NCBI GenBank assembly: GCA_045603565.1 | Contig: JAZUML010000003.1 | Span: 13,818-77,817 of the forward strand | From: Candidatus Nanosyncoccus sp. | GTDB lineage: Bacteria > Patescibacteriota > Saccharimonadia > Saccharimonadales > Saccharimonadaceae | Length of the DNA stretch: 64,000 nucleotides | Reading direction: 5' to 3' | Shown here: positions 10,482-62,002 of the stretch, piece after piece | Layout: every line of letters starts with the position of its first letter | How positions within the stretch are numbered: the stretch's first letter is position 1 | Notes under the pieces: model-generated | What the model was told of the DNA's origin: nothing | Database searches by the model: none | What the model saw: the letters and a program-made list of their open reading frames with translations, nothing else | Position numbers and translations under genes: made by a program

Positions 10482-11042
10482 ATGTACGGACCAACAGATC
10501 TAAAGAAAAATACACTCATTACTTTAGACGGACAGCCGTATAAGGTGGTGGAATATTCTCAAAAAGTCATGGGCCGTGGCGGCTCGATTGTTAACGTCAA
10601 GGTCAAAAACTTAATCACCGGCGCACTTTTACCCAAAACATTCAAAGGGCAAGAAAAGATCGAACCCGCCGAGGTAACTACTCGCAAGGTTCAGTACCTT
10701 TACAAGGATGACGAAAAGTTTTATTTCATGAATCCAGAAAGTTTCGAACAATATGAACTTCCAGCCGATATGGTAGGCGAGTCCAAAGATTACATGAAAG
10801 ATGGAGACGAAATGGAAATCCAGTTCTATAATGGCACTCCAATTAATCTCGTACTACCAAAGAATCTTTGGCTCGAAGTAGTTTATACCGAGAATGCCGT
10901 AAAGGGCGATACTACGAGTTCTGTTATGAAAGACGCCAAACTTGAAACAGGCATCGTAATCAAAGTTCCTGCTTTTATCAAAGAAGGCGATATCGTATCA
11001 GTCGATACGGAGTCTGGTGCTTACCGTGAGCGTAAAAAATAG
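10482..11042 (+). CDS. efp: Elongation factor P (loop MGRGG)
   Basis: KVKNLITG, YLYKD, VKGDT, KVPAFIKEGDIVSVDTESGAYRER; start set at MYGPTDLKK. Confidence 0.94.
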   Translation: MYGPTDLKKNTLITLDGQPYKVVEYSQKVMGRGGSIVNVKVKNLITGALLPKTFKGQEKIEPAEVTTRKVQYLYKDDEKFYFMNPESFEQYELPADMVGESKDYMKDGDEMEIQFYNGTPINLVLPKNLWLEVVYTENAVKGDTTSSVMKDAKLETGIVIKVPAFIKEGDIVSVDTESGAYRERKK

Positions 11043-23001: not shown

Positions 23002-23017
23002 ATCTATATTATATCAG

Positions 23018-23140
23018 AAGAAAATTAGAATGTTACCTTCTCGGGGGCTTCCGCGACCAACGGGGAGCGGACTGAGCGACTGAGCCCCATAACGATGGGT
23101 GCGAAGTAGCATACCCCGAAAGGTATATTCTAATTTTCTT
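23018..23140. repeat. Family A palindromic element, intergenic between the divergent xer and ndk genes
   Basis: Arms 23018-23039 and 23120-23140; core homologous to the tsaD, tlyA and polA copies. Confidence 0.9.
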
Positions 23141-33634: not shown

Positions 33635-34006
33635 GTGAAGAAAATTATCGCATTATTAGCAATCATCACAATGAGCTTGTCTAGCATTAGCGCTCATGCA
33701 CTAAGCATGGTTCAAACAAGTCAATTTGGTGCAGTGGAAACAGCTATATTGAATGACTGCGGCAGCAAAGACGGCGGCGAAGGTGTAATTTGTATCATTA
33801 ATCTTGTTGTAAACATCTTGTCCGTCGGCGTTGGCATCTTGGGTGTCGTGGCTATTTCCGTAGTCGGCGTCCAATACCTTACCGCCGGAGACAGTGAAGA
33901 AAAAGTGCGCACTGCTAAGCGTCGATTATTCGAGATCGTGATTGGCCTTGCCGCCTACGCCGTAATCTATGCCTTATTACAATGGCTCTTACCAGGCTTC
34001 GGATGA
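33635..34006 (+). CDS. VirB2/TrbC-like (T4SS pilin family) protein
   Basis: GGAGG RBS + GTG; signal peptide; two hydrophobic helices around GVQYLTAGDSEEKVRTAK. Confidence 0.75.
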   Translation: MKKIIALLAIITMSLSSISAHALSMVQTSQFGAVETAILNDCGSKDGGEGVICIINLVVNILSVGVGILGVVAISVVGVQYLTAGDSEEKVRTAKRRLFEIVIGLAAYAVIYALLQWLLPGFG

Positions 34007-34983
34007 GACGCTTACTAATTATTTATAATCCTCGCTCGTCTCGTTTTTCTGATGTTAAAGACGAGGTCCTTAGTCGTCTAACGGAGCTAAAAGGCTACAT
34101 GGTTGGAAAATATGAAGTCGCTAACACCGATGTTGACGACAATGCTAAAAAGCTTGCCAAAATCCTCAAAAACGACGATCTAGTAGTTGCTGCAGGGGGT
34201 GACGCCACGGCCGTCATTGCTGCTAACGCAATCCTGCAGTCGGACAAAAACATCACTCTCGCCGTTCTCCCGTATGGTAACTTCAACGACCTCTCTCGTA
34301 CTCTCGGAACGGAAACTTTAGAAGATGTCGTTACATGGACGGGTGGCGTCGCTGGGGGGACCCCCGCCGCACGCAGCCGTGAGGCGAGTACGGCGGGGGA
34401 AACTGCGACGACAGGACTCGTCCAGAAACTATATCCTCTCGAAATATACATTGATGATAAGTTTTTCCGTTACGCTACTTGTTATGTCACCATCGGTATG
34501 ACCGCCGAGGCCGTTGAATTATTCGATAAACCTAAAGTCAGGAAAAAGCTCAAAACTTCCTCGGGTCGCTCCTTCGGCTCATATCTAAGTCTTGCGGGTT
34601 GGTATTTCAAGAACCGTCATCGCAAAACATTTTTGCCCGAGTTCAAGCTCAATGGCGAATTGCAGCACCGCAAAACGTCCGACTACGCTGCTGTCAACGG
34701 TAGCTCAATGGCTCGTGTTATGAAAGGTGGCGATGACTATCAGAATCCCACAGTCTTTCGTAGCGAAACCGACCGCTTGACTAGTTTTTGGCGTTTAGTA
34801 AAACTACTAACGAAAAGCATACTCTCTCGAATTCCAGGCTCAGAAACCAAAGGCGACATTTTGGAATTCATAAGACCATCCACCGTCGAATTACAAGCTG
34901 AAGGCGAGTATACGACTTTTGAGAACATTAATAAAATTGAAATCAAGAAAGGCAAAAAATGTCTGAAGGTAGTCAAGAAATAG
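34003..34983 (+). CDS. Diacylglycerol/lipid kinase family protein with a ~30-aa palindromic insertion
   Basis: IIYNPRSS, AAGGDATA, LPYGNFNDLSRTLG, EGE C-terminal motif; ATGA overlap with the upstream gene. Confidence 0.85.
   Translation: MRRLLIIYNPRSSRFSDVKDEVLSRLTELKGYMVGKYEVANTDVDDNAKKLAKILKNDDLVVAAGGDATAVIAANAILQSDKNITLAVLPYGNFNDLSRTLGTETLEDVVTWTGGVAGGTPAARSREASTAGETATTGLVQKLYPLEIYIDDKFFRYATCYVTIGMTAEAVELFDKPKVRKKLKTSSGRSFGSYLSLAGWYFKNRHRKTFLPEFKLNGELQHRKTSDYAAVNGSSMARVMKGGDDYQNPTVFRSETDRLTSFWRLVKLLTKSILSRIPGSETKGDILEFIRPSTVELQAEGEYTTFENINKIEIKKGKKCLKVVKK
34333..34427. repeat. Family B palindromic element, in frame within the lipid kinase gene
   Basis: ACATGGACGGGTGGCG...CAGGACTCGTCCAGAA; ends match 45887-45974. 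Confidence 0.88.
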
Positions 34984-35768
34984 AGCAAATCGTTAAATAT
35001 ATGAAGTCGCATTGGCCGTCCAATGTTAAACCAGAATGGCAAGTCGGTCTCGCCGAATATCCTGGCATCCTCAAAAAGGCATTAGCAGATTTAACCATGG
35101 CTGCGACTAAAAATTACCATCTCATCCGCATAGCAGGCGTCTCTGGTTCTGGTAAAACCACTCAGATTTTACCCGCCGTTGAAGCGTATTGCGAAAAAAA
35201 CAATTTCGAGCCAATTCTAATGGCTGCACGTCGTTTTGTAGAGTATCATCCGCACTTTGAAGAAATCAAAGAATACTATGGTGAAGAGAACTTACGCAAA
35301 AACACTGACGAATTCTGTACTATTATGCTATTCTTAACGCTTTCTGCATTGATGAAAGATGGTTACGACATTGTTTTAGACGTCACCTTATTAGACCCAG
35401 AAATGGAAGCAATTTTACTCAAAATGGTCAAAACAGAAAACTACAAGTTCTTAATTCTCATGATTGCCGTTTCACCTACCGTCACTGAAAAATACCTTAG
35501 CGGTCGTGCTTGGCGCCATTCTAAAGCCACTGAACAAGAATTTATCCGAGCCACATCCGAGGCCCTAGCCTTTTATGCCGAAAACACACCTGATACACAC
35601 ATCATTATCTGGAGCGTCTATGACAAACCGCCAGTTTACGACGGTCCAATCAAAGATTGTATCGATATATTTAGCGACTATTCAAATAGGGAAGCACTAC
35701 CAAAATCTGATGACGACGAGCGCCGCGACGCTAAAATCGATTATCTTACCAAATTAGAGTTGATTTAG
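34959..35768 (+). CDS. Zeta-toxin-family P-loop kinase
   Basis: IAGVSGSGKTT Walker A, FVEYHPHFEEI, DIVLDVTL. Confidence 0.65.
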   Translation: MSEGSQEIEQIVKYMKSHWPSNVKPEWQVGLAEYPGILKKALADLTMAATKNYHLIRIAGVSGSGKTTQILPAVEAYCEKNNFEPILMAARRFVEYHPHFEEIKEYYGEENLRKNTDEFCTIMLFLTLSALMKDGYDIVLDVTLLDPEMEAILLKMVKTENYKFLILMIAVSPTVTEKYLSGRAWRHSKATEQEFIRATSEALAFYAENTPDTHIIIWSVYDKPPVYDGPIKDCIDIFSDYSNREALPKSDDDERRDAKIDYLTKLELI

Positions 35769-37596: not shown

Positions 37597-40050
37597 ATGA
37601 AAAAGCTGGTCTTAATTGACGGAAAATCGGTTTTTTACCGAGGTTATTATGCAATGGGCGCACTCAGCCTTCCAGACGGTACGCCGACCGGCGGAGTATA
37701 TGGTTTTGCCGCTATCGCCATGGAAATCGTCAAAAAAATCAATCCCACCAAAATAGTTGTGGCTTGGGACTCCAAAACTTCTACCTCCAAACGCCGCGCA
37801 ATTTATCCGGAGTATAAAGCCGGTCGCGTTAAGCCAGGCGAAGATTTTTATGCCCAAATCCCACTTTTAAAGGAACTAATTCAAGATTTAGGTTGGAGTT
37901 TTGTTGAAATTGATGATTATGAAGCCGATGATATTATTGGCACGCTTTCAAAACAAGCCGACGAGACCTTAGATCAAAACGGCAAATGTGAGTACGAAAC
38001 ATTTATTATTTCTTCCGATCTCGATATGCTCCAAATAGTAGATAGCAACACCCATATGTGGCGCATCCTCAAGGGGTTTACTAACATTGAACAAATAAAT
38101 GTTCCAGAAATCGAAGCCAAATACGGCATCAAAAAGTCTCAATTCTTAGACCTCAAAGCCCTGAAGGGCGATTCGTCCGACAACATCCCCGGCGTACCCG
38201 GTATTGGCGAAAAAACCGCCGCCAAGCTTTTGAATGAATACAAAGATTTAGACGGTATATATCATAATATAGATAAAATTACCGGTTCAACCAAAGCCAA
38301 ACTCGAAGCAGGCGTCGCCTCCGCCCTCATGTCCAAAACTTTAGCTCAAATCATGTTTGACGCTCCTGTCTACCTAAACGACATCCCCGACTTCATATTC
38401 GACCGCGACCGCATCATTGCTGGCTTGAAAAAACTCCAATTCAACTCTCTCATCCGCAAAACTAGTCAAGAGGGCAAAGAAGCTGCAATTTCGAGGGGAT
38501 CCGGAGCCTGGCAAGGCGAGGACGAGCGCGTCGCCCCCGTGGCGACCGCCCCCCGGGACGCGGACGACCTCTGGTCGACGGGTGGCGACGACGCGCCCCG
38601 AGAAAGTGCTGATTCTTTGCCTGTCGATACTATTATTGATTGGAACATCAAATCTCTGATGCATCACGACGGAAAAATCGCTTCCGAAATCCTGCACGGC
38701 AAAAACTATTGGGATCTCGGCCAAGCAGAATTCTTACTCAATCCTCTCGAACGTGGACAATCAGATTTATATGACCCTATGGATTTTAAAACTGCTTATC
38801 AGGTTCAGCACAGGGAACTAAACAAGCTCCCTAGACTATATAATATATACAAAGAATTTGATTTGCCCCTAATTCCGATTCTTTACAAAATGGAAAAGCA
38901 GGGCATGTTAATCGACCGAGAATATTTCAAAAACCTCCAAGTCGAATACACCAAAGAAGTCGCCGCGCTTGAGCAGGATATTCAAAAACTCGCCGATACA
39001 GAATTCAACGTCAATTCTCCGATTCAGCTTTCCGAAGTGCTATTTTCCAAGCTCGAACTCCCAACCAAGGGCATCAAAAAGACCACTCGTGGCTATTCTA
39101 CTGGAGCAAAAGAGTTAGACAAACTCAAAGACCTCCATCCTATTATTGCCAAAATTATCGAATACCGCGAAGCGGCTAAGCTTCTTAACACTTATATCAT
39201 CCCAATTCCAGGCCTTGCGGGCGAAGACGGTCGTATCCACACCACTTTTACCCAAAATGTTACCGCTACTGGGCGCTTAAGTTCCAAAGATCCTAACCTC
39301 CAAAACATTCCAGTTCGTACCGACGAAGGCAAACGCATTCGTACTGGCTTCATTGCACCAGAGGGCAAAGTTTTGGTCTCGGCTGACTATTCTCAATTTG
39401 AGCTCCGTCTTGCCGCGATTCTGTCTGGTGATCAAGCCCTAATCGATGATTTCAATCACGACGTGGATATCCACACCAAGACCGCTTCAGAAGCCTTCAA
39501 AGTCCCGATGGACAAAGTCACCAAAGCCCAAAGACGCGCCGCCAAAGTCATTAATTTTGGTATTCTTTATGGCATGAGTGTCAAAGGTCTTTCTGACGCC
39601 GCCAAAATGCCAATTTATGAAGCAAAACGATTCATTGATAATTATTTTGAACTTCGCGCCCCAATCAAACAAAAACTGGAAAGCATCCTAAAACAGGCTA
39701 GGGAAGAAGGCTTTGTCGAAACTTTCTATGGTCGCCGTCGCCCTACACCAGACGTCAAATCCAGCAATTTCTTGATTCGCCAAGCCGCTGAGCGCGCCGC
39801 TCAAAATATGCCAATTCAGGGCACTGAAGCCGACTTAATGAAACGCGCTATGATCAAGGTCGATCAAAAGCTTCCCGAGGGCGCTAATCTCGTTATGCAA
39901 GTGCACGATTCTTTAATTGTTGAATGCGATAAATCTCAAGCCAAAGCAGTCGCTAAGATTTTGAAGACCGAAATGGAGTCTGTTGCCCCCGAGCTAGATA
40001 TCAAACTCGCCGTCGAAATCTCCACCGGTCAAAACTGGGGCGAACTCTAA
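37597..40050 (+). CDS. polA: DNA polymerase I with a ~50-aa palindromic insertion in the interdomain linker
   Basis: LIDGKSVFYRGYY, YEADDIIGT, GDSSDNIPGVPGIGEKT, TGRLSSKDPNLQNIP, DYSQFELR, NFGILYG, QVHDSL. Confidence 0.97.
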   Translation: MKKLVLIDGKSVFYRGYYAMGALSLPDGTPTGGVYGFAAIAMEIVKKINPTKIVVAWDSKTSTSKRRAIYPEYKAGRVKPGEDFYAQIPLLKELIQDLGWSFVEIDDYEADDIIGTLSKQADETLDQNGKCEYETFIISSDLDMLQIVDSNTHMWRILKGFTNIEQINVPEIEAKYGIKKSQFLDLKALKGDSSDNIPGVPGIGEKTAAKLLNEYKDLDGIYHNIDKITGSTKAKLEAGVASALMSKTLAQIMFDAPVYLNDIPDFIFDRDRIIAGLKKLQFNSLIRKTSQEGKEAAISRGSGAWQGEDERVAPVATAPRDADDLWSTGGDDAPRESADSLPVDTIIDWNIKSLMHHDGKIASEILHGKNYWDLGQAEFLLNPLERGQSDLYDPMDFKTAYQVQHRELNKLPRLYNIYKEFDLPLIPILYKMEKQGMLIDREYFKNLQVEYTKEVAALEQDIQKLADTEFNVNSPIQLSEVLFSKLELPTKGIKKTTRGYSTGAKELDKLKDLHPIIAKIIEYREAAKLLNTYIIPIPGLAGEDGRIHTTFTQNVTATGRLSSKDPNLQNIPVRTDEGKRIRTGFIAPEGKVLVSADYSQFELRLAAILSGDQALIDDFNHDVDIHTKTASEAFKVPMDKVTKAQRRAAKVINFGILYGMSVKGLSDAAKMPIYEAKRFIDNYFELRAPIKQKLESILKQAREEGFVETFYGRRRPTPDVKSSNFLIRQAAERAAQNMPIQGTEADLMKRAMIKVDQKLPEGANLVMQVHDSLIVECDKSQAKAVAKILKTEMESVAPELDIKLAVEISTGQNWGEL
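38473..38621. repeat. Family A palindromic element with an expanded central hairpin, in frame within polA
   Basis: 26-bp arms 38473-38498 and 38596-38621; GC-rich core TCGAGGGGATCCG...CGAGGACGAGCG resembles the tlyA copy. Confidence 0.82.
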
Positions 40051-45596: not shown

Positions 45597-45658
45597 CAGA
45601 CGAAACCAACGAGTCGTACTTGTTTTTTTCTAATACTCGTGGTATAATACCTCCCAAT

Positions 45659-45877
45659 ATGGCAATAAAAGTTACAAGAAAAGATCAGGGTGAGGCAAAC
45701 GAGAATATTATTCGTCGTTTCAACCGCAAAGTCCTTCAGAGCGGCATGATGCCTTTAAAGAAGTCGCAGATGCGTTTTAGTAAGCCTATTTCTAAGCGTG
45801 AGCGCCGCCTTAAAGCTATTATCCGCGAAGCCCGCAAGGCCGAAAAAACCGAGCGCATCAAACTAGGACTTAAATAA
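45659..45877 (+). CDS. rpsU: 30S ribosomal protein S21
   Basis: IKVTRKD..E..ENIIRRFNRKV...RF.KP.SKRERR; start after TGGTATAAT. Confidence 0.8.
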   Translation: MAIKVTRKDQGEANENIIRRFNRKVLQSGMMPLKKSQMRFSKPISKRERRLKAIIREARKAEKTERIKLGLK

Positions 45878-45886: not shown

Positions 45887-45974
45887 ACATGGACGGGTGG
45901 CGGACATGGAGGGGGTCCCCCCAAATTGTTACCAATTTTGGGGGAGGAGAATGTCCGCCAGGACCCGTCCAGAA
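45887..45974. repeat. Family B palindromic element, intergenic rpsU-adk
   Basis: TGGACGGGT/ACCCGTCCA and GGCGGACAT/ATGTCCGCC perfect stems; ends match 34333-34427. Confidence 0.88.
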
Positions 45975-46006: not shown

Positions 46007-46600
46007 ATGATTATATTATTTGGTTTAGCAGGTTCAGGTAAAGGAACACAGGGGAAGGCTCTATCCGAACTTTTCGGCTGGCGTTGGCTTTCGGTTGGCG
46101 ATGTTATTCGTCAAACCGGCGAATTCAAAGAACTTACCGACAAAGGTGAGCTAATCCCAGACGAAAAAGTAATCGAATTAATGGATAAGCAGATCAACAA
46201 AGCCGAAGCAGAAGGTTTTGATGTGATATTAGATGGCTATCCTCGTAATCAGGCTCAAGCCAAATATATCGTAGATCATATGCCAGAAAAGATCGACGGC
46301 GCTCTAATTCTTGAAGTCCCAAAAGAAGAACTAATCGAACGTTTGGCGTTGCGCGGTCGCGATGACGATAAAGAACGAGCCAGCATCGAACGTCGATTCG
46401 ACATCTTTGAACAAAATATTAGTTCAATTTTACCTCTGTTAGAGTCCAAAAACATTCCTATTGAACGCGTAGATGGCGTCGGCACAGTAGAAGCTGTAAC
46501 CGACCGTCTAGTAGAAGTTGTTCAAAAAATCTGCCCGAATGCTACAATTCAAAACGACGATGTCAATGGTGGAGAAATCGAGAAAAGTTATGGTGAATAA
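46007..46600 (+). CDS. adk: Adenylate kinase (short LID)
   Basis: GLAGSGKGTQ, SVGDVIR, GELIPDE, LDGYPRN, RGRDDD. Confidence 0.94.
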   Translation: MIILFGLAGSGKGTQGKALSELFGWRWLSVGDVIRQTGEFKELTDKGELIPDEKVIELMDKQINKAEAEGFDVILDGYPRNQAQAKYIVDHMPEKIDGALILEVPKEELIERLALRGRDDDKERASIERRFDIFEQNISSILPLLESKNIPIERVDGVGTVEAVTDRLVEVVQKICPNATIQNDDVNGGEIEKSYGE

Positions 46601-47372
46601 AGATACCGCCGACACCAAGACTTTGCAATCCAAGATCACTGCCATGCGCGAAGGCGGCAAAATCATGGGCAATCTTTTAAAAGACCTCGAAAACTATGTC
46701 AAGCCCGGCATGACAGGGAAGGAAATTGACGCTTGGGTCCGCCAGGAAATCGTTAAACGTGGCGCCACCGTAGCGTACGATGATTTAAAAGAGAAATTTC
46801 CAGGAGCAATCTGTATTTCCATTAATGACGAATTGGTTCACGGCGCCCCTAAGGATGAACCCCTAGAAGAGGGCGACAAAGCTTCTTTTGACCTCGTCAT
46901 CGGTTATAAAGGCTACTATACTGACTCCGCTTTTACAATGATAGTTGGCGAAAAAGGCTCACCAGCCGTTAAAAAAATGATTAATATTACCAAAGAATCT
47001 CTCTGGGCCGGCATTGAGCAAGTTAGGCCCGGCGCCCATATCGGCGATATTGGCCACGCCGTCGAAACAGTCCTAAGAAAAGGTCATCTCGGCGTAATAG
47101 AAAACTACATCGGCCACGGCATCGGCAAAGAAATGCACGAACCGCCCGAAGTCCCCAATTATGGCAAAAAAGGTCACGGCTACAAACTAGTTGAAGGCGA
47201 TACTATTTGCATCGAACCAATGTCTTGTCTTGGTAAACCCGCTAATTACGTAGACAAAGATGACAACTGGAGCGTCAAAATGAAAGACGGCTCCATCGGC
47301 TGTCACTGCGAACACACCATTCTCGTCACCAAAGACGGTTACGAAGTGCTAACACTAGCAGATGGCGAGTAA
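46590..47372 (+). CDS. map: Methionine aminopeptidase type I
   Basis: CISINDELVHG, D..YYTDSAFT, GHGIG..MHEPP, IEPM, HCEHTI. Confidence 0.96.
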   Translation: MVNKDTADTKTLQSKITAMREGGKIMGNLLKDLENYVKPGMTGKEIDAWVRQEIVKRGATVAYDDLKEKFPGAICISINDELVHGAPKDEPLEEGDKASFDLVIGYKGYYTDSAFTMIVGEKGSPAVKKMINITKESLWAGIEQVRPGAHIGDIGHAVETVLRKGHLGVIENYIGHGIGKEMHEPPEVPNYGKKGHGYKLVEGDTICIEPMSCLGKPANYVDKDDNWSVKMKDGSIGCHCEHTILVTKDGYEVLTLADGE

Positions 47373-47462
47373 GAATTCCTAAGATGTCCTGCGGGACATA
47401 AAGACTTGGCCCGAGTGACCCGGAACGTGCCCGAAGGGCACGCTTGGAATTCTTACTCGCCA
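47363..47462. repeat. Family C palindromic element overlapping the map stop codon
   Basis: Perfect 17-bp inverted repeat TGGCGAGTAAGAATTCC/GGAATTCTTACTCGCCA enclosing two small hairpins. Confidence 0.85.
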
Positions 47463-47487
47463 ACACAAAATGTGTTATAATTAACTC

Positions 47488-48833: not shown

Positions 48834-51800
48834 ATGTTAAAATTTTTGGGAGACAAAAATAGAATTGTTGACGCAACTTCATTTTGTGCGTCTATTTTTA
48901 GTTCTCTCTGTTTTGTATTAGCTTCTAGTTTATTCGTCGTGATTCTTTCTTTGATTAGTTCCTTATTGTTTAACTCTTCCAATGTCTCCGCTTACACCGC
49001 CTCTCTCTCCACTTCCGGCACAGTTACTACTAATGTCACTCCTAATACAGAAGGAGATAAAAGTATTAGTATTAATCAAGATTCAGTCAATGTCATCACG
49101 GACTGTAGAGCAGGTTATAACCTCACTATCTCTTCATCTGTTACTGACAGAAACCTATATAAAGACGGTAATAGTGCTAATAATACATCAGGGCAATACT
49201 TCACTCCAGTTAATGGTACAGCACAACTAAACAACACTACTAACCAATATGGCTATTCCTTAACAGCTAATACAGAATCAGGTGTATTTACTCCTCTTCC
49301 TCTTCCTTCTGCTCCTACCTTTATTAAGACTCCATCACAAACCGCCAGTGAGTCAGATATTGATGATGATATCTCAGTCTACTATGGTGTATCTACTGCT
49401 AATACTGTAAGTCCAGGCTTATATAAGATGCCAAACAATGGCTATGTCCTTTATCAGCTTACACTAGATGATAGCTGTAGATCCTATACGGTAGCCTTTA
49501 ATGCTAATGGTGGTACTGGCACTATGACTAACCAAGACGTTACTGTAGACCAAGCTATTAACATAAAAGCCAACTCCTTTACTGCTCCAGCAAGGGGTCA
49601 ATCCTACCAAAACGCAGATGGCAACACTATACCAGCTATAGCAGACAAGATGTGGGCCTTCTGGGGCTGGAACACTGAAGTAGATGGCTCTGGTGACTGG
49701 TATAAAGACAGAGAATCTGTCACTAACCTCGCTAATGATGGTGATACTATTACCTTCTATGCCCAATGGAAACAAGCTACCCTAGCAGATCTTACCGCGT
49801 CTACTCCAGGACAAAACAAAACTATAGACCACAATACTATGCAAGATATGAGCAGTGCTACTTGTTGGAACTCAGACAAGTTCACTGCCATCGGTACTCC
49901 ATATGGCCAAGCTACTTTAGTAGACACTAGAGATGGTAACACTAGAACCTATACTGTAGCTAGACTTCCAGATGGCTATTGTTGGATGACTCAAAACCTT
50001 AACTTGGGTACCTCCACTCCTATCACCCTTACTTCAAACGACACAGACCTAGAAGAAGGTACCACCTTTACTTTACCTGCTTCTGATCCAAATGATTTTG
50101 CTACCAGTTCTGGTAGCGCCAACGTAAACAAAGCTACCGTCCTAAACGATATGACCATCCCAGATTATACCGTAAATGGCACCACTTATTCCGGCAAAGT
50201 CACTGGCTACTATTCCTATGCTGCTGCCACAGCAGATACGAGTACATATAGTAAATCTAGTGCTACTGAAGTAACTACTTCTATTTGTCCTAAGAACTGG
50301 GATCTTCCTACTAATACCCAATACTACGATTTAAGAACTAAAGGTAGCATTGCAACCTATAATAACACAACGGCAAGCTACGAGGGTAAAAACGCCGGCA
50401 ATGAACCATATTACTTCATTTATGGCGGCTATCGTAGGGCTGCTGGTAGCGAAGTAAACACAACAAACTTTTACAATCCAACTACTTATGGTTACCTTTG
50501 GACAGCGAATAACTACGGCTCTTCTTCTGGTCGCGGTACATACGTATATTCTAGTGGATTATATAATAGCTCTGCTGGAACGACCTATAGTAAGTATTAT
50601 GGTTTAGGGGTGAGATGCATATCCAATATGGATGAAGTTATGGCCAAGATTACCTTTGTAAACACTGAAACCGGCGAAACGCAAACTCAAATAATTGGTC
50701 TAATCGGTGAAAATAATACGATAACATTGCAACAACATCCCGCTATTTGGACTAAGTCTAATTATAGTATTGCTGGTTGGGATACTAATGATGCTGGAAC
50801 TAATGTAGTCTATACTAAGGGACAATCTGTTACTTTATCAGACGACATCACTTTATACACTGTTTGGAAACCAGCTTACAATATCCAATATGACGGGAAT
50901 GGGGCAGACGAGGGTGTAATGACCAACGTAAAACACACTAGTACTTTTGAAGGGGACACCTTTGATCTTTTTGCTAGTAATTACAGTAAAGCAAACTACG
51001 GCTTTGTTGGTTGGTCTTTTGATCAGAATGCGCAACCAGGTGGCTCATCCAGAATTTATGGTCCGAATGAAACTATTATTGCTCCAGCAGCATCTATGCC
51101 AGGAGAAACTAAAACCCTCTATGCTGTATGGATTCAATCTGCCGGTAATCTCCAAGATTGGAACGGCTGCTCTAATATGAACATAGGAGACGTAACAGCC
51201 TTAAAAGATACACGAGATAATCAGGTTTATACCGTAGGCAAACTAGCCGATGGAAACTGCTGGATGACGGAAAACTTGAGATTAAATAATACCGCTATTG
51301 GTAACTCTGATGCTTCATTGGCGCAAGGTTATGGTGGAGTATTTGCGGGGTTAGCCGATCCAGAAGGGACTTCAAGTTTTTATAGCGCTACTACGCCAAA
51401 TAGCCTTTATACGGTTGATGATTCTTCTACGACGCTTAATATAATTGTTGGCAGTAATCTGGGTTATCGTTTTCCGCGTTACGACAATACTAATACTGAT
51501 TCTAGAGACACAAATCCAAGTATAGATGATGATCGTGCCATTGCTACATCTGCACATGTTGCGGGACTTACTTCTGCTATTTATTCTTATGGTAATTATT
51601 ATACTTGGGCTGCCGCTAAAGCCAACACAGAAGATTTAGCCACTAGCGCCGTATCTGAGGCTGCAAATACCTCTATTTGCCCATCTGGTTGGAAACTTCC
51701 ATATGGCGGTAGTTCTAACAATAGTAATGCCAGTGGTGGCTTTTATTATTTGAGTGCACAATTGGGTGCTACTGCGTCAAATGTAACGAGTGCTCGGATT

Positions 51801-54728
51801 TGGCGTGGTTATCCAAATAACTTTGTTTATGCTGGACAGAAAGGATCGGGTTTAAATTCTCAGCGTGGTACGGGTGGGTATTATTTATCGGCTAGTAGCT
51901 ACAATGATGGTAATCCCTATTCTATGTATATTGGTCCACAGACTATTATTCGAAATGAGACAAGTAATAAATATTATGGTAAACCAATTAGATGTCTTGC
52001 AGAAGATGGTCTAGGAGTAAAGTTGATGCTTAATGATGGTACTAATAGGGTGGGTGGTCGTGTATATGGTAAAGCTGGCTCTACGGTAACTCTCCCAAAT
52101 ATTAATAGAAAAGAAGGATATTATCTTGCGGGTTGGAATACAGCTGCAGACGGAAGCGGTACGCAATACACTAGTTCTTATACCTTTAGCCCTTCTGCTA
52201 CGACTGGTATTACACTTTACGCACAATTAGTCGTAACTGATTGTCCTGCCGGAAAAATTTGTTACGATACTAATGGTAATAATGTAGAGGGCACGATGGG
52301 GCAGCAGACAATATCTAATACTGATACTTCTGTTACTTTAATGCCTTCTAATTTCTCTAGATCTGGTTACGGCTTTGCGGGTTGGAATACTAAGGCTGAT
52401 GGTACTGGTATAAGTTATGGTCCAAACGAAACTATAGAATTCTCGGCCGGAGCTTTTCAGTTTGGTGGGCTGAAATTATATGCTATGTGGGTGCAATCCG
52501 CAGGTAATCTTCAAAGTTGGGGCGAATGCAACAATTTAGCTGTTGGTGCTGTAACTGCGTTGACTGATCAACGGGATAATCAAACATATACCGTGGCTAG
52601 ACTAGCTGATGGCAAATGTTGGATGGTAGAAAACCTAAGACTAGAGGCGAATAATTCTGGCAATAGTAATTATGCTCAGGGGTTTGGTGGAGTATTCTCG
52701 GGTTTAGCAACAGCTGAACCTGATACTAATTTTGATAACTCTACTACTTCAAATAGTAAGTATAGTGATTCTAATATTACTGGTAGTTATCAAGCTTATC
52801 GTTTCCCGCGTTACAATAATGTAAACACTCAGTCTAGAGCTAGCAGTCCAACTAGTGCTAATGCGAGTATTTTTAGTTATGGCAATTATTATTCTTGGGC
52901 TGCTGCTAGAGCTAACACTGAGCATTTGATAAACGATGTTACTTTGGATACTGTCAATACGTCTATTTGTCCAGCTGGCTGGCGTTTGCCTAATGGTACT
53001 AATTTTGGCGATTACAGTATGCTTAGCAATAGTTTGGGGGGTTACAAAGATGTTAGTGGTGCGGCTCAGGCTATGAATTCTTCTACTATTCCTACTGGGG
53101 CTGAAATGTCTAAGGTCTTAAGAAGCTTCCCGAATAACTTTCTTTATTCTGGCGGTATAGGTGGAACTGGAAGCTCAGGTTCGCTTGTTGGGCGTGGTTA
53201 CATGGGGAGTTATTGGACCTCAACTTCCTCTACTGTCACTGCTGATTACTTTAATATCGGTGGAAATACGAGTGGTGATTTAGTTGTTCGTCCCAATGCG
53301 AGTAGTGGTGCATATGTTTATAGCTCGAAGTATAACGGCTATTTGGTTCGTTGCGTGGCTGATCAATCTAATACTGGATCTACGAGAATAACCTTCAATA
53401 AGAACAACTCATCTGCTACAGGTTCCATGAGTGTTCAGACTATTAATGCGGGAACATCAACTGCTCTTACGACTAATGGTTTCAGTAGCTCTGGGTATGT
53501 ATTCAATGGTTGGAATACTAAGGCAGATGGGAGTGGTATAAGCTATGCCGATGAAGGAGCATATTATGCTATTGCGGGCAATGAAACCAATAATGCAACG
53601 TTATATGCTCAATGGGATCAATTAGTTACAATTACATTTAGTTTGGACAGTAATACCACTGGTATTAACTTTGATGGGACAACATATACTAATGGGCAAA
53701 CTACACAAGCTATAGTAGGAAAAGAATATACTATAATTAGCATGTTTAATACTAAATATGGTGTTAATAGTTGGAGTGCTACAGCTGGTACGATTGCCAA
53801 TAATACTTATAACACTACTACTTATACTCCTACAGAAAGTAGTGCCACTATTTCGGTCACTGCTAAAGAAGCTACGGTCAGTATTAGTTCTCTCACTAAT
53901 CCTTCTACTCCAGTCTCCAGTAACTGTAAGAATGAAGCAGTAGTACCAGAGCTAGTCTATGATCCACGCGATAATGAAGCTTACTATGTAGCTAGACTTT
54001 GTGATGGCAAATACTGGATGCTAGATAATTTAAGATTAGACTTAACTAATTCTACAGTTATAAATAATCTAACTTCTAGTAATACTAATGCTACTGCAAC
54101 GCAGCTTGACTACTTGAAGAATGGTGGTGGTACCGCTACGGATCAATATCCTACGGCTGGATTAACTGGTTCAGGATGGGTTAGTAGTTATTATTATTCT
54201 GTTCCACAGATAAACAATAATTTTAAAGACATAATTGCTCCGGTTGTTTATGGCGTGGGCTCTAGCAAGCTTGGCATATATTATAATTATTGTGCTGCTT
54301 CTGCTGGCTCTTACTGTTGGGGTAATCGTACGGACTCTATTGGCTCTCCAACTACCGATCCAAGACCTAGTTCTTATCGTGATATAGAAGGTGATATTTG
54401 CCCGGCTGGATGGCGTTTGCCTACCGGCGGGGCTAATGATGGTTCTGACTATAGATATTTATATTCGGTTTATAATGGATCTATTGCAGGTCAAAATGTT
54501 GCGATGCGTAATGCGTTGTCTTGGTTATTATCTGGCAATATAAGTAATGATAGTAGTTCGCTGAGTGATATTGGTGAACTTGGTGTGCGCGGTCGATTCC
54601 AGTCATCTTCTTGGGGTAGTCAAGATAATATGTTTACTCGAACATATAATAGTTCTAGTAATAACGGAAGTTTTTCAGATACTTCTTTGAGTCGTACCAC
54701 GAGAGTTCCTATTAGATGTGTGCGATGA
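48834..54728 (+). CDS. Giant (1964 aa) surface protein with four FISUMP (Fib_succ_major) domains and Listeria-Bacteroides-type repeats
   Basis: Four D.RD...Y.V..L.DG.CWM..NL ... ICP.GW.LP ... RC blocks; repeated F.GWNT.ADG.G..Y ... LYA.W units; N-terminal hydrophobic anchor. Confidence 0.85.
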   Translation: MLKFLGDKNRIVDATSFCASIFSSLCFVLASSLFVVILSLISSLLFNSSNVSAYTASLSTSGTVTTNVTPNTEGDKSISINQDSVNVITDCRAGYNLTISSSVTDRNLYKDGNSANNTSGQYFTPVNGTAQLNNTTNQYGYSLTANTESGVFTPLPLPSAPTFIKTPSQTASESDIDDDISVYYGVSTANTVSPGLYKMPNNGYVLYQLTLDDSCRSYTVAFNANGGTGTMTNQDVTVDQAINIKANSFTAPARGQSYQNADGNTIPAIADKMWAFWGWNTEVDGSGDWYKDRESVTNLANDGDTITFYAQWKQATLADLTASTPGQNKTIDHNTMQDMSSATCWNSDKFTAIGTPYGQATLVDTRDGNTRTYTVARLPDGYCWMTQNLNLGTSTPITLTSNDTDLEEGTTFTLPASDPNDFATSSGSANVNKATVLNDMTIPDYTVNGTTYSGKVTGYYSYAAATADTSTYSKSSATEVTTSICPKNWDLPTNTQYYDLRTKGSIATYNNTTASYEGKNAGNEPYYFIYGGYRRAAGSEVNTTNFYNPTTYGYLWTANNYGSSSGRGTYVYSSGLYNSSAGTTYSKYYGLGVRCISNMDEVMAKITFVNTETGETQTQIIGLIGENNTITLQQHPAIWTKSNYSIAGWDTNDAGTNVVYTKGQSVTLSDDITLYTVWKPAYNIQYDGNGADEGVMTNVKHTSTFEGDTFDLFASNYSKANYGFVGWSFDQNAQPGGSSRIYGPNETIIAPAASMPGETKTLYAVWIQSAGNLQDWNGCSNMNIGDVTALKDTRDNQVYTVGKLADGNCWMTENLRLNNTAIGNSDASLAQGYGGVFAGLADPEGTSSFYSATTPNSLYTVDDSSTTLNIIVGSNLGYRFPRYDNTNTDSRDTNPSIDDDRAIATSAHVAGLTSAIYSYGNYYTWAAAKANTEDLATSAVSEAANTSICPSGWKLPYGGSSNNSNASGGFYYLSAQLGATASNVTSARIWRGYPNNFVYAGQKGSGLNSQRGTGGYYLSASSYNDGNPYSMYIGPQTIIRNETSNKYYGKPIRCLAEDGLGVKLMLNDGTNRVGGRVYGKAGSTVTLPNINRKEGYYLAGWNTAADGSGTQYTSSYTFSPSATTGITLYAQLVVTDCPAGKICYDTNGNNVEGTMGQQTISNTDTSVTLMPSNFSRSGYGFAGWNTKADGTGISYGPNETIEFSAGAFQFGGLKLYAMWVQSAGNLQSWGECNNLAVGAVTALTDQRDNQTYTVARLADGKCWMVENLRLEANNSGNSNYAQGFGGVFSGLATAEPDTNFDNSTTSNSKYSDSNITGSYQAYRFPRYNNVNTQSRASSPTSANASIFSYGNYYSWAAARANTEHLINDVTLDTVNTSICPAGWRLPNGTNFGDYSMLSNSLGGYKDVSGAAQAMNSSTIPTGAEMSKVLRSFPNNFLYSGGIGGTGSSGSLVGRGYMGSYWTSTSSTVTADYFNIGGNTSGDLVVRPNASSGAYVYSSKYNGYLVRCVADQSNTGSTRITFNKNNSSATGSMSVQTINAGTSTALTTNGFSSSGYVFNGWNTKADGSGISYADEGAYYAIAGNETNNATLYAQWDQLVTITFSLDSNTTGINFDGTTYTNGQTTQAIVGKEYTIISMFNTKYGVNSWSATAGTIANNTYNTTTYTPTESSATISVTAKEATVSISSLTNPSTPVSSNCKNEAVVPELVYDPRDNEAYYVARLCDGKYWMLDNLRLDLTNSTVINNLTSSNTNATATQLDYLKNGGGTATDQYPTAGLTGSGWVSSYYYSVPQINNNFKDIIAPVVYGVGSSKLGIYYNYCAASAGSYCWGNRTDSIGSPTTDPRPSSYRDIEGDICPAGWRLPTGGANDGSDYRYLYSVYNGSIAGQNVAMRNALSWLLSGNISNDSSSLSDIGELGVRGRFQSSSWGSQDNMFTRTYNSSSNNGSFSDTSLSRTTRVPIRCVR

Positions 54729-54780
54729 GCGACCAGTGTAAAGGTGTGGAGGATCATGATAGTATGCTATAATAAAAGGT

Positions 54781-55209
54781 ATGAAGATTCTTTGGACTGA
54801 TGGCAGTGCATCGCCAAATCCGGGGCCGGGGGGATTTGCAGTGATTGAAGTAAATGATGGCGTGGGGCAACCAGTGGCTTTGGGGCGCGAGAAAGATACG
54901 ACGAATATTCGGATGGAAGGTTCGGCGATGATTGCAGCGATTAAATATGCTGACGCAGAAGGTTGTGAAATCCATTCCGATTCGGAATTTTGGATTAATG
55001 TGCTTACGAAATGGGCGCTGGGGTGGCAAGCGAATGGTTGGAAAAAATCGAAAGGTGAGATAAAAAATCTAGATCTGGTGCAAGAATTATATGAGTTATA
55101 TTGTAAATATCCGGTGAAATTGGTGTGGGAAAAAGGTCACGATGGAATAGAGTTTAACGAAATGGCAGACGAGTGGGCCAATAAGGCGCGCGAAGGTGCG
55201 GAATTGTAG
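54781..55209 (+). CDS. rnhA: Ribonuclease HI
   Basis: WTDGSASPNPGPGG, TTNIRME, SDSEF, KNLDL, KGH.G..FNEMADEWA. Confidence 0.95.
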   Translation: MKILWTDGSASPNPGPGGFAVIEVNDGVGQPVALGREKDTTNIRMEGSAMIAAIKYADAEGCEIHSDSEFWINVLTKWALGWQANGWKKSKGEIKNLDLVQELYELYCKYPVKLVWEKGHDGIEFNEMADEWANKAREGAEL

Positions 55210-55292
55210 TTTGCGATAAAACTTGCGTTTTTTCAAGTCTTTTGCTATAATAGGGATACTGTTTTGAATACTTGTAATAAAAAAGGAATTTT

Positions 55293-57425
55293 ATGAATTT
55301 AAAAGAAGAAGAGCGTCGTGCCCGGCTCTTAAAATCTAGGGCAGAAAGATTACCAGATATTAAGAAGCAATTTGAAGAGGCACAGAATCGGAATTTTAAT
55401 TCGAACTTTCAGCCTGGTGGTAAAGATGAAAAGTTGGTGAAAAAACCTAAGACTACCAAGGCGACTAAGGCCAAGAAGGCTACTGCGAAAGCAGCGCCTT
55501 TAACGGCGAAGGACAAGGCGAGACAAGAAGCCGAACAGCGCAAGGTAAATCTGTCTGTATCTGTCAAAAAAGGCGACATGGTGCACCACCAAAGAATGTT
55601 GTCGCAAGACGTGAATGCGCAAGCTACTCAACATATTATTGGAATTCCAGTCAATAAGTCGAAATACAATGGTTATAATGGCGAGCAGGTAACCAATGCG
55701 AAGATTAAGCAGGCTCGTCCTGATCCGGATGCGGTAAGAATTATTCCGATTGGCGGACTTGGTGAATTTGGTATTGGTAAAAACATGACGATTTTTGAGT
55801 ATAAGTCCGAAATAATTGTCGTAGATATGGGTGTGTTGTTTGCGGGCGAGGATTACCCTGGCGTTAATTATATGATTCCGGATATTAAATACTTGGAAGA
55901 CAATCGTGATAAAGTGAAGGCGATTTTGTTTTCGCACGCACATCTAGATCATATTGGAGCGTGTCGTCATCTTTTGCCAAAATTTGGACCGCTAGTTCCG
56001 ATTTATGGAACTGATTTTACGATTGGAATGATTAAGAAACAAATGTCCGAATTAGAAGAAGAGCCGGATTTGAATTATCAAGTGGTGGATCCGCTGAAGC
56101 ACGAAAAGTTCCAGGTGAGTGAGCATTTTTCGGTAGAGTTTATTCATACTTTACATTCGATTCCGGGAAATACTGCAATAGTGCTGCGTACCCCGAATGG
56201 CGTGATTTATCTTTCGGGTGACTGGCGTCACGAGGAAAATCCGATGGGTGTACAGACGGATTACGAAAGAATTGATGAAATTGTGGCAAAAGAGGGGATC
56301 GACTTGATGCTCAACGAATCTACTAATATTGATTCGCCAGGGCGTCACCCACATTCAGAATATGATATTGGCGAAAACATGGGTAAAGTGATGGACCATT
56401 ATGTGAATGGCCGGGTGATTATTTCGTGTTTCTCGTCGCAGATTGCGAGAATTGAGTTAGTCCTGAAGGAAGCGGCGAAGCGTGGTCGCAAGGTAGCGTT
56501 TAGTGGATTTTCGATGATAAACAACTTGGAAGTGGCACTTCGCGCGCGAGCGATTAAGGTGCCAAAAGATACAATTGTAAAAATGGAAGATATTATTAAA
56601 CTTCCAGACGAGAAAGTTTGTATTGTTTGTACGGGCTCGCAAGGTGAGTTAAACGCGGTCCTCAGTCGGATGATTAGTGGCGCGCATAAATATATCAAGA
56701 TTAAGTCCACCGACACGATAGTATTTTCGTCTAATCCGATTCCTGGTAACGAGCCGCATGTGGTGTCGACAGTGGACGGACTTTTGCGCGAAGGTGCGCA
56801 GGTGATTCAAAACGGTAAAACGCACCTTACTAATATTGGGCCACTTCATTTGTCGGGTCACGCATACTATGAGGATCATGTGGAATTTGTAACTAGGCTA
56901 CATCCGACTAACTATTTGCCATATCACGGTGAGTTTTATATGTTGGAACATAACGCAGAGATGGCGGAGAACGTGCTTGGTATTCCGCACGACAATATTC
57001 TAGTGGCGGATGACGGCGATGTGGTGGAATTTACAAAAGACAAGAAAATCCGCAAGGCTGGGAGAATTCAGGTAGGGAATAAACTTTATGATGATGCGGA
57101 TCAGCAAGTTCATGAAGCTGTGATCAAAGACCGGATTCATATTTCGCGTGAAGGAATATTTGTGATAATTTTGACTTTGAATAAAAAGACTGGGCATTTG
57201 ATGAAGACACCAGATATTGTGTCGCGGGCGTTTATTTATCTAGATAATTCGGAAGAGTTGATTGGCAAGATTCGACATTATCTGCGACAAAAGACTGATA
57301 AATCGATTTCGACCGACCCGGAAATGAAGGTATTAAAAGAAGAAATCAAAGAAGACATTACACATATTTTGTTTGATGCGACTGGCCATACGCCAATTGT
57401 AATTCCGGTGATAAATAAGGTATAA
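55293..57425 (+). CDS. rnj: Ribonuclease J with a ~145-aa N-terminal extension
   Basis: IIPIGGLGEFGIGKN, SHAHLDHIGA, HSIPG, CTGSQGE, PIPGNE, HLSGHA, PYHGE. Confidence 0.96.
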   Translation: MNLKEEERRARLLKSRAERLPDIKKQFEEAQNRNFNSNFQPGGKDEKLVKKPKTTKATKAKKATAKAAPLTAKDKARQEAEQRKVNLSVSVKKGDMVHHQRMLSQDVNAQATQHIIGIPVNKSKYNGYNGEQVTNAKIKQARPDPDAVRIIPIGGLGEFGIGKNMTIFEYKSEIIVVDMGVLFAGEDYPGVNYMIPDIKYLEDNRDKVKAILFSHAHLDHIGACRHLLPKFGPLVPIYGTDFTIGMIKKQMSELEEEPDLNYQVVDPLKHEKFQVSEHFSVEFIHTLHSIPGNTAIVLRTPNGVIYLSGDWRHEENPMGVQTDYERIDEIVAKEGIDLMLNESTNIDSPGRHPHSEYDIGENMGKVMDHYVNGRVIISCFSSQIARIELVLKEAAKRGRKVAFSGFSMINNLEVALRARAIKVPKDTIVKMEDIIKLPDEKVCIVCTGSQGELNAVLSRMISGAHKYIKIKSTDTIVFSSNPIPGNEPHVVSTVDGLLREGAQVIQNGKTHLTNIGPLHLSGHAYYEDHVEFVTRLHPTNYLPYHGEFYMLEHNAEMAENVLGIPHDNILVADDGDVVEFTKDKKIRKAGRIQVGNKLYDDADQQVHEAVIKDRIHISREGIFVIILTLNKKTGHLMKTPDIVSRAFIYLDNSEELIGKIRHYLRQKTDKSISTDPEMKVLKEEIKEDITHILFDATGHTPIVIPVINKV

Positions 57426-61992: not shown

Positions 61993-62002
61993 TTATATAT
62001 TT

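Follow-up and report, generated by a model that had tools for sequence, protein, structure and literature searches.

Two GC-rich hairpins in the 64,000-nucleotide stretch of Candidatus Nanosyncoccus DNA analysed here (the window) were found to belong to a dispersed family, family B, which is probably a non-autonomous mobile repeat, rich in GC, about 80-96 bp in size and itself non-coding. We consider it likely that family B is a selfish hairpin element, similar in behaviour to the RPE and REPIN repeats and moved via a folded single strand. New here is the strand polarity of its copies relative to GC skew.

The positions of both copies, their stems and the neighbouring genes are listed in Table 1. 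According to the initial annotation the two copies share an identical 16-nt 5' end and a near-identical 3' end, which was borne out: the window contains exactly two occurrences of ACATGGACGGGTGGCG, both on the + strand, starting at 34333 and at 45887, and CAGGACYCGTCCAGAA is found exactly at 34412 and 45959. Each copy folds into one long hairpin, of -55.2 kcal/mol for copy 1 (z = -5.3) and -49.7 kcal/mol for copy 2 (z = -5.7), with none of 200 shuffles equally stable. The inner stems indeed differ in sequence and still pair, both in GTCGC/GCGAC versus GGACAT/ATGTCC and in CCCCGCCG/CGGCGGGG versus CCCCCC.AAATTG/CAATTT.GGGGG. Copy 1 carries a conserved unpaired G-run (34354-34359) 5' of P3 and an apical hairpin of a type that recurs at loci L126, L123b, L205 and L224, and in copy 2 a 3-nt AGG bulge (45960-45962) lies between P1 and P2 on the 3' side. 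Copy 1 is also present in a relative (L072/L150, 97% identical) and copy 2 in L125.

Table 1. Family-B copies, their predicted stems and adjacent genes in the window
Feature	Position	Strand	Remarks
DAGK_cat-family lipid kinase, host of copy 1	33982..34983	+	333 aa, ORF intact
Family-B copy 1	34333..34427	+	95 nt by covariance model; 85.1 bits, E = 3e-20
Copy 1, P1 5' arm (TGGACGGGT)	34336..34344	+	partner 34416-34424 (ACTCGTCCA), one G-U pair; fold prediction
Copy 1, P2 5' arm (CGTCGC)	34347..34352	+	partner 34405-34410 (GCGACG); variable covarying stem; centroid structure, per-pair counts
Copy 1, P3 (CCCCCGCCG / CGGCGGGGG) and apical hairpin	34361..34399	+	fold prediction
Copy 1, P1 3' arm	34416..34424	+	fold prediction
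Ribosomal protein S21-like ORF, upstream neighbour of copy 2	45620..45877	+	Pfam E = 4.8e-5, below curated cutoff
Family-B copy 2	45887..45974	+	88 nt, intergenic rpsU/adk; covariance model 85.6 bits, E = 2e-20
Copy 2, P1 5' arm	45890..45898	+	partner 45963-45971; fold prediction
Copy 2, P2 5' arm (GGCGGACAT)	45899..45907	+	partner 45951-45959 (ATGTCCGCC); fold prediction
Copy 2, P3 (CCCCCC/GGGGGG) and AT-rich apical hairpin (AAATTG-TTAC-CAATTT)	45916..45945	+	fold prediction
Adenylate kinase (adk), downstream neighbour of copy 2	46007..46600	+	Pfam ADK, E = 8e-24

A covariance model search identified 139 copies at 103 loci among the matches listed, so that the window pair are members of a larger family and the proposition that no other copies exist is refuted. 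An initial pattern scan returned 14 loci in genomes, Saccharibacteria throughout, and a relaxed one at least 119 loci; a scan of metagenomes gave 5 loci only. The covariance model discards GC-rich chance matches from actinomycetes and others, and the 16-mer alone, used as a genome-wide probe, returned at least 120 mostly chance matches in GC-rich genomes and one true relative. All traceable copies come from ruminant-gut Saccharibacteria/Nanosyncoccus, where the family is present in upwards of 45 species-level genomes, patchily among species; viral contigs contained no family-B copy. Among the rejected candidates, the metagenome locus L159 (GC 71%) was a chance match, and L156/L157 share the ends within a conserved coding segment (LDGSCPP...PPVHG) of an unrelated 478-aa ORF, at a covariance score of only 31 bits. 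A search of the accessible literature returned no paper tying Saccharibacteria or CPR bacteria to palindromic or in-frame repeat elements.

On the sense strand, which is the better-folding one, the hairpin has a 9-bp basal stem P1 at its base, followed by the AGG bulge, which adjoins a covarying A.G/G.A mismatch, by the variable P2, a purine-rich internal loop (GGAGGGGG / AGGAG), the C5/G5 stem P3 and a variable apical hairpin. The element ends in CATGGRCGGGTG and CAGGACCCGYCCAG, and outside (A)CATGG...CCAGAR the information content is at most 0.4 bit. Pairing, not sequence, is maintained, as had been surmised from the two window copies: across 118 copies 95.4% of stem cells are paired, 18 of 24 pairs show both-sided changes and 510 cells are compensated, statistics that are to be read with shared descent of the copies and with an alignment fitted to the model. 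Slid controls pair at 39-50% only, and 0 of 500 shuffles match the observed covariation values. All three stems covary strongly, P1 alone alternating among GGAC/GTCC, GGGC/GCCC, CGAC/GTCG and CGGC/GCCG in other copies; the mismatch covaries as well (A.G versus G.A, 107 to about 11), and conservation extends to the unpaired purine motifs. Of the 139 copies, 135 fold more stably as sense than as antisense strand under DNA parameters and 127 under RNA parameters, the stability gap between strands being 3-4 kcal/mol.

Such strong covariation in three stems, together with the conserved purine motifs and the covarying mismatch, is also what would be expected of a functional structured RNA kept by the host, whether as a cis-regulatory element of mRNAs, as a stabiliser, as a terminator or as the gene of a small RNA. 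The excess of G-U over A-C pairs on the sense strand (55 to 29) and the presence of the element in transcripts point the same way, and in RNA contigs of a relative a plain terminator hairpin stands 3' of rpsU at the place of copy 2. However, the family-B hairpin has no T-run 3' of it, and apart from tRNAs the whole window is without an Rfam match; permissive Rfam scans of both copies gave 11-17 bits only, against gathering scores of 34-90. Moreover, one in three copies within genes runs antisense to the mRNA of its host, most kinase orthologues lack the element, near-identical copies stand in unrelated contexts, decay by deletion and truncated copies are both seen, and orientation tracks GC skew rather than gene direction. 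A functional RNA motif, one of the two possibilities raised at the outset, thus fits poorly and is quite unlikely, and the mobile hairpin remains our preferred reading.

Half of the family lives inside genes: 70 of the 139 copies, 47 in sense and 23 in antisense orientation, are internal to ORFs that are 150 aa or longer, in hosts such as ExoI, QueA, Tgt, cysteine desulfurase, MnmA, PriA and the kinase, which retain full Pfam domain matches. Copies persist only where they are harmless, in short intergenic spacers and in permissive surface or linker loops. Copy 2 does lie between genes, namely the S21-like ORF and adk, as had been noted. Copy 1 is in sense orientation and in frame within the kinase gene and would add to this DAGK-family protein the peptide that had been proposed, with TWTGGVAGGTPAAR as the predicted sequence spanning the insert. 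The kinase ORF matches Pfam DAGK_cat at residues 10-115 (E = 1.8e-15), and its PDB relatives DgkB/BmrU align with residues 2-110. The orthologue alignment and these PDB relatives place the insert behind the catalytic N-domain, within the loop between the domains. The empty alleles that had been called for exist, 18 of 21 kinase orthologues being empty, with a short loop at the site.

Of 126 reading frames 98 are open, against 63.8 expected, and all in-ORF copies leave the host frame stop-free and the downstream frame intact. RNA contigs, of low depth and carrying no strand information, run continuously from flank into element across both borders, and the element is retained in the kinase transcript. 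The open frames and the transcript retention together suggest that the element would be translated into about 27-33 extra Gly/Pro/Ala/Arg/Thr-rich residues. Could such a segment instead be kept out of the protein, by intron-like removal or by ribosomal bypass? Translational bypass of GC-rich hairpin inserts is known in some yeast mitochondria, family B likewise places a stable hairpin within ORFs, and by the model boundaries the lengths of in-ORF copies span every residue class modulo 3. Yet lengths that become divisible by three upon addition of one nucleotide are enriched among in-ORF copies (odds ratio 3.2, p = 0.0017), copy 1 with its preceding T (34332) amounting to 96 nt or 32 codons, and the net inserts relative to empty orthologues at two coding sites are 81 and 90 nt, both multiples of 3. 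Frame-keeping, stop-free inserts argue against removal, because removal would make both properties needless. Skip joints were found in neither DNA nor RNA contigs, a contig-level result that rare forms could escape. An intervening sequence of this kind is therefore extremely improbable.

That family B has been mobile is suggested by its copies themselves. Twenty-six copy pairs are at least 94% identical, mostly with unrelated flanks, and near-identical copies occur within one genome or locus (L241 3185/3615, 98%; L185 4551/5790, 97%). In the filled/empty pair L241 versus L168 the insert equals the model plus 1 nt, no target duplication is seen, and the junction reads ...TATATCAT | insert | TGTTGTA.... 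Borders of copies show no excess of direct repeats, no target-site motif and no stem extension into the flanks; on the 5' side there is a weak T-rich preference only. Decay is equally visible: at the Tgt site L123 holds a full copy and L129 what a deletion has left, about 30 nt, and L127 5348 and L128 4234 are truncated or degenerate copies. In metagenomes the element is covered 3-5 times as deeply as its flanks, and many metagenome contigs end at 34331-34340 and 34424-34426. In related species the same loop of the kinase, QueA or cysteine desulfurase holds different subtypes or even different families. Random insertion followed by selection may incompletely explain this same-loop occupancy, and copies may in addition replace or convert one another.

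The other possibility raised by the initial annotation was a single-stranded substrate of an HUH transposase recognising TTAC or CTAC. These tetranucleotides do precede the two window copies, but they fail as a general target: TTAC, the commonest preceding 4-mer, is found at 25 of 138 copies (18%) and CTAC at 8 of 138 (6%), so that a fixed, GTAG-like target is not upheld. Nor did a linked Y1/RAYT transposase turn up, tblastn giving no Y1, RAYT or TnpA match at E <= 1 in 8-kb windows totalling 1.06 Mb of Saccharibacteria DNA, a weak negative, obtained with E. coli RAYT and IS608 TnpA probes. The single-strand substrate as such gains indirect support, because insertion is clean and without duplication and because orientation is strongly biased relative to GC skew.

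GC skew of the flanks, read on the sense strand, is negative for 126 of 138 copies (91%, p = 4e-25), and genes show almost no bias with respect to skew (275 to 242); element orientation thus follows GC skew, whichever way the genes run. If, as is usual, the G-rich strand is taken to be the leading one, a rule that is not calibrated here, the better-folding strand would be the leading-strand template, the opposite of the active strand of IS608. The gene dnaA is absent near the skew flip of the window (52-55 kb) and from all loci examined. The genes at this flip encode FtsA, RNase H, RNase J, an oxidoreductase and a Y-family polymerase.

The polarity might reflect a host-level role, in which the element or its G-rich motif would serve as a replication- or segregation-polar sequence of the KOPS or Chi kind, or a survival filter instead of the insertion mechanism; in the latter case insertion would be random and hairpins in the lagging-strand template would subsequently be lost by slippage or hairpin cleavage. 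A value of 91% resembles that of known polar motifs, some subtypes carry GGGGAGGG, and the stabler strand lies on the negative-skew strand, by the usual rule the leading-strand template, on which hairpins are tolerated more readily. In sedentary integrons, too, the attC strand that folds is kept on the template of the leading strand (PMC5371416). On the other hand, the patchy species distribution speaks against an essential polar function, the gap of 3-4 kcal/mol between strands seems too small to produce so strong a bias by survival alone, and the sign of the skew is uncalibrated. We regard a host-level or filter origin of the polarity as unlikely, and retain insertion via a folded single strand as the probable source.

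The element has multiplied to many loci and inserts precisely, leaving the target site unduplicated. Under the preferred reading it would be mobilised in trans via a folded single-stranded intermediate, in all likelihood single-stranded DNA at the replication fork. The mobilising enzyme would read shape and a few conserved unpaired bases, not stem sequence, which would explain both why the stems covary and why the copies are polar to a replication-associated GC skew. At a later stage, copies decay through deletion. Two sister families, A and C, occur in genomes with family B. It is conceivable, though we put it forward as a speculation, that families A, B and C constitute a new class of mobile elements in CPR bacteria, recognised by structure as single strands, coupled to the replication fork, routinely remodelling the loops of essential proteins and moved by an enzyme other than the known HUH transposases or by fold-back copying that preserves the complementarity of the two arms. 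If this is true, they would provide a tractable model for the spread of RPE-type in-frame elements.

In-frame palindromic repeats have been a Rickettsia curiosity for 25 years, and family B suggests that RPE-like behaviour arises independently in ultra-small episymbiotic Saccharibacteria. With recent near-identical copies, filled, empty and decayed sites and a defined covarying structure, it provides ample data with which to track down the enzyme and the intermediate, the 91% strand polarity being a concrete mechanistic clue. In practical terms, the inserts add disordered loops to essential enzymes (PriA, Tgt, QueA, MnmA and IscS-like proteins) and inflate or distort CPR protein alignments, gene calls and structure predictions, and the repeats break metagenome assemblies at their borders.

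Among known systems, members of the IS200/IS605 family and the MITEs derived from them resemble family B in precise insertion without duplication and, on the preferred reading, in dependence on a folded single strand; their replication-linked orientation bias would be shared if the GC-skew bias of family B stems from replication. However, their ends are two different subterminal hairpins, whereas in family B one hairpin spans the element, and IS608 inserts 3' of a fixed TTAC, which precedes only 18% of family-B copies. The orientation bias of IS608 follows the lagging-strand template (PMC5027513), and that of family B would be reversed by the usual, here uncalibrated, skew rule.

The attC sites of integrons share conserved ends, a free interior and conservation of structure on one strand, their recognition by shape plus unpaired bases matches what is proposed for family B, and their strand placement relative to replication matters (PMC5371416). 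Family B could accordingly be taken for an attC-type folded single-strand recombination site of a tyrosine recombinase, as its conserved ends, variable paired interior, single better-folding strand and strand polarity are all compatible with this. Its copies, however, are solitary in ORFs and spacers instead of bordering promoterless cassettes in an array, and its ends are without the GTTRRRY/RYYYAAC boxes, that is, without R and L core sites, which makes this reading very unlikely.

Classical MITEs (Correia, ERIC, BOX and others) are small, non-autonomous and dispersed, possess terminal inverted repeats and sometimes form in-frame ORF fusions (PMC10969869). In family B the terminal inverted repeats are present as P1, but target-site duplication is absent, selection acts on the entire element as a hairpin with covarying stems, and polarity is strong.

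REP and REPIN sequences likewise are GC-rich hairpin repeats in which pairing is maintained, the REPINs being of similar total length. A RAYT (Y1 HUH) gene is typically flanked by REPs. REPs are extragenic, in contrast to family B with 50% of its copies within ORFs; family B has no conserved GTAG-type tetranucleotide (CTAC, the complement of GTAG, precedes 8 of 138 copies), and unlike REPINs it is not composed of two inverted REP units. For REPs, too, action on folded single-stranded DNA has been proposed, and they lack target duplication (PMC3333891).

The closest likeness in behaviour is to the Rickettsia palindromic elements (RPE): short palindromic repeats of several families, in the reduced genome of a host-dependent bacterium, inserted in frame in intact protein genes (in family B, 70 of 139 copies within ORFs). 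RPE are about 100-150 bp long compared to 80-96 bp for family B, and they encode one conserved peptide, whereas family B uses both orientations and several frames. To our knowledge the mobilisation mechanism of RPE is not known, and we know of no report of strong stem covariation or GC-skew polarity in them, both of which are seen in family B. The resemblance to this element of a different phylum (Patescibacteria/Saccharibacteria) is one of behaviour, with neither descent claimed nor a sequence relation expected; a large share of RPE also lie in frame in unrelated housekeeping genes, where the peptide is compatible with protein function (PMC10969869).

Both copies of the hairpin repeat named family B in the window fold into one long hairpin (copy 1 at -55.2 kcal/mol, z = -5.3; copy 2 at -49.7 kcal/mol, z = -5.7), with none of 200 dinucleotide shuffles folding as well as either copy, and the GC content of family-B copies is 59-71% compared to ~43% for the window. 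The shared ends reported in the initial annotation were confirmed, as the 5' 16-mer and the 3' 16-mer pattern each occur exactly twice in the window, and so were its covarying inner stems, which are unlike in sequence and pair in both copies. The positions it had assigned, one in frame in a lipid kinase gene and one intergenic, were found as well (Table). In the kinase, the insert comes after the segment aligning to domain 1 of DgkB/BmrU (residues 2-110); an ORF for a zeta-toxin/AAA_33-type kinase (34959-35768, Pfam E = 7e-16) shares 25 nt with the 3' end of this gene. At the intergenic site (window 45878 onward), family B lies, without a T-run after the copy, at the place directly after rpsU where RNA-derived contigs of a related organism (run X28) have a classical terminator, CTCCCC-ACAA-GGGGAG followed by a T-run.

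On its own, the 5' 16-mer lacked the specificity needed to probe a 596-Gb collection; its scan yielded a near-identical relative, a Nanosyncoccus MAG with the same kinase insert. A two-anchor pattern returned 14 loci, all from Saccharibacteria/Nanosyncoccus MAGs (cattle, sheep and similar hosts), and relaxing it for variants of the basal stem P1 gave at least 119 loci, with about 45 different species-representative Saccharibacteria assemblies among the matches listed. A covariance model trained on 16 copies, which detected only the two family-B copies in the window and was strand-specific (85 bits on the + strand versus 8-12 bits on the - strand), recovered 118 copies from the relaxed-pattern loci listed, a few GC-rich chance matches being passed over. 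Together with the earlier set, the family, for which such a search had been proposed, amounts to 139 copies in 103 loci among the matches listed. Its density in carrier genomes is roughly one copy per 20-30 kb, as estimated from the window and from secondary copies in pattern-selected loci. Viral contigs held no family-B copy and JGI metagenomes only two true ones. The Rfam check suggested in the initial annotation gave no match at gathering or permissive thresholds, and an element of this kind in Saccharibacteria or CPR is not described in the searchable literature.

That the structure is under selection, as proposed earlier, is well supported: in an alignment of 118 copies, fitted to the model and related by descent, standard pairs fill 95.4% of cells, 18 of 24 pairs have changed on both sides (510 compensated cells) and none of 500 shuffles attains these values. 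Moving the partner by 1-3 columns lowers pairing to 39-50%, and a 21-copy set gives the same picture. Once unforced by the pattern, P1 covaries as well (GGAC/GTCC, GGGC/GCCC, CGAC/GTCG, CGGC/GCCG). Conserved unpaired elements are the termini, (A)CATGG...CCAGAR, and a 3-nt AGG bulge separating P1 from the variable middle stem P2, beside which a purine-purine mismatch alternates between A.G and G.A in a correlated manner (107 versus about 11, two mixed). A G-run 5' of the C-run and a purine-rich loop on the 3' side are conserved as well. The sense strand, with 55 G-U versus 29 A-C pairs, folds better than its complement by 3.4-4.1 kcal/mol, for 127 of the 139 copies under RNA parameters and for 135 under DNA parameters; a structured RNA motif, one of the identities initially offered for family B, is considered unlikely.

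Of the 139 copies, 70 (47 sense, 23 antisense) lie within ORFs no shorter than 150 aa and are flanked there by 40 or more codons on either side. The hosts are housekeeping enzymes whose Pfam matches are still full-length, including exonuclease I, QueA, Tgt, class-V aminotransferase/cysteine desulfurase, MnmA, PriA, CDP-alcohol phosphatidyltransferase and the DAGK_cat kinase. Empty alleles of the kinase, which had been called for, are common: of 21 species-level orthologues, 18 have a short loop. The loop is filled by family B in the window, its close relative and three further loci (L164, L182 and L224); L136 and L143 carry two other hairpin families there. In each orientation the copies occupy several reading frames. 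Stops are depleted over all six frames (98 of 126 open versus 63.8 expected from composition), model length plus one is divisible by three in 37/70 in-ORF copies versus 18/69 others (odds ratio 3.2, p = 0.0017), and the net insert compared to empty orthologues is 81 and 90 nt at two coding sites. RNA-derived contigs span the junctions between flank and element at either end, with no contig skipping the element. Taken together, these observations argue that the in-ORF insert is transcribed and suggest that it may be translated as a loop rich in Gly, Pro, Ala, Arg and Thr. In related species, one and the same loop of a host protein is occupied by different subtypes of B or by different families (kinase, QueA residues 107-135, cysteine desulfurase), which suggests that copies re-insert at permissive sites or exchange with one another.

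Copies at least 94% identical form 26 pairs, most with flanks no more alike than by chance and several within the same genome or the same 8-kb locus. One intergenic site with well conserved flanks carries the element in L241 but not in L168; the insert of 89 nt equals the model span with one additional 5' nucleotide, and target duplication is absent. Over all copies, border repeats are not in excess and a T-T preference 5' of the element is weak. In metagenome assemblies that include the organism of the window, the element is covered 3-5 times as deeply as its flanks, and many contigs match nothing but the element and break off at its borders. Decay is also seen: a Tgt gene (L129) has a ~30-nt remnant exactly at the site of a full copy in L123, and one half copy and one degenerate copy were found (Table).

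With GC skew taken over +/-3 kb and elements masked, the strand with negative skew is the sense strand for 126 of 138 copies and for 94 of the 102 loci (p between about 1e-19 and 1e-25), and multi-copy loci have co-oriented copies in 28 of 31 cases. This polarity is not a by-product of transcription, since the same loci contain 518 long ORFs that are nearly balanced for coding-strand GC3 skew (275 negative, 242 positive) and skew in the window follows the DNA strand and not gene direction. By the usual skew rule, which is uncalibrated for these genomes, the better-folding strand would be placed on the leading-strand template. Alternatively, the polarity might reflect survivorship, hairpins on the lagging-strand template having been lost, or, possibly, placement imposed by the host, comparable to the placement of attC sites in sedentary integrons (PMC5371416). 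The absent target duplication, the selected single-strand shape, the conserved unpaired bases and the skew polarity together suggest that the element is mobilised via a folded single strand, the simplest candidate being ssDNA at the replication fork. Within the window, GC3 skew at ~52000-55300 reaches very high values (about +/-0.4), and its sign on the + strand flips between a giant ORF (48834-54728) and the RNase J gene at 55293, with mostly + strand genes on both sides. The flip could be an origin or terminus, an inversion or an assembly joint; dnaA was not found near it (52-55 kb), nor in any compared locus. The giant ORF (1964 aa) has internal repeats of ~1.3-1.4 kb (direct-repeat families D1, D3, D7, D9, D11) and probably encodes a repetitive surface protein.

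Hairpin repeats in the window and in compared loci (L-numbers)
Feature	Location	Strand	Setting	Energy
Family B, copy 1	window 34333-34427	+	in frame within ORF 33982-34983, DAGK_cat-family kinase	
Family B, copy 2	window 45887-45974	+	between S21-like ORF and adk	
Family B, full and half copy	L127 5173-5395	same orientation	PriA	
Family B, full and degenerate copy	L128 3670-4325	same orientation	MnmA	
Family A	window 1975-2105		inside ORF 1328-2464 (- strand)	
Family A	window 23015-23125		intergenic	
Family A	L136 1830-1950		fills same kinase loop	
Family C	window 38450-38650		in frame in 817-aa ORF 37597-40050	-88.7 kcal/mol
Family C	L143		kinase insert	
Family C	L129 600-758		QueA, exactly at site of family B in L123	
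Long hairpin	window 11255-11390		in ORF 11017-11679	-57 kcal/mol
Long hairpin	window 47355-47470		just after map	-54 kcal/mol
Long hairpin	window 61895-62010			-40 kcal/mol

The skew tendency is shared, in small numbers, by motifs of two other hairpin families, A and C. Family A, the one already named in the initial annotation, combines a conserved three-way core (CCGCGACYAACGRGGAGCGG ... GCCCCRTAACGAYGGG) with outer stems that are not conserved, and the motif strand of this core is on the negative-skew strand in 10 of 13 matches. The third family, C, is GC-rich (TTTCGAGGGGATCCGGAG ... CCCCGAGAAA; 82% GC; -88.7 kcal/mol over 201 nt), occurs in frame in genes and includes, in its window copy, the B-like stretch GACGGGTGGCG. 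The three long hairpins, AT-rich in their outer stems and GC-rich inside, may represent additional repeat families. Several genes are preceded by a promoter-like repeat of 31 nt, CTTG(N)...TATAAT(A) (window 3186, 45439, 45619, 48727, 55222), which appears to be the strong -35/-10 consensus of this organism.

Judging from Rfam and the searchable literature, family B comprises previously undescribed, in-frame-tolerant, strand-polar hairpin mobile repeats of Saccharibacteria. IS200/IS605 elements transpose in single-strand mode, inserting into the lagging-strand template and leaving an orientation bias (PMC5027513). The ssDNA idea behind the proposed HUH transposase substrate is plausible for family B; its link to TTAC/CTAC is not general, these tetranucleotides preceding 18% and 6% of copies, respectively, and TnpA was not found by tblastn at E <= 1 with E. 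coli RAYT and IS608 TnpA probes in 1.06 Mb of Saccharibacteria DNA. Family B also differs from IS200/IS605 in having neither a fixed target tetranucleotide nor two different end hairpins, and its better-folding strand would fall, by the usual skew rule, on the opposite, leading-strand template. It resembles REPINs in hairpin logic, whereas the extragenic location and the GTAG of REPs are lacking. Finally, Rickettsia palindromic elements are short palindromic repeats found in frame in many unrelated genes (PMC10969869), and family B behaves alike.
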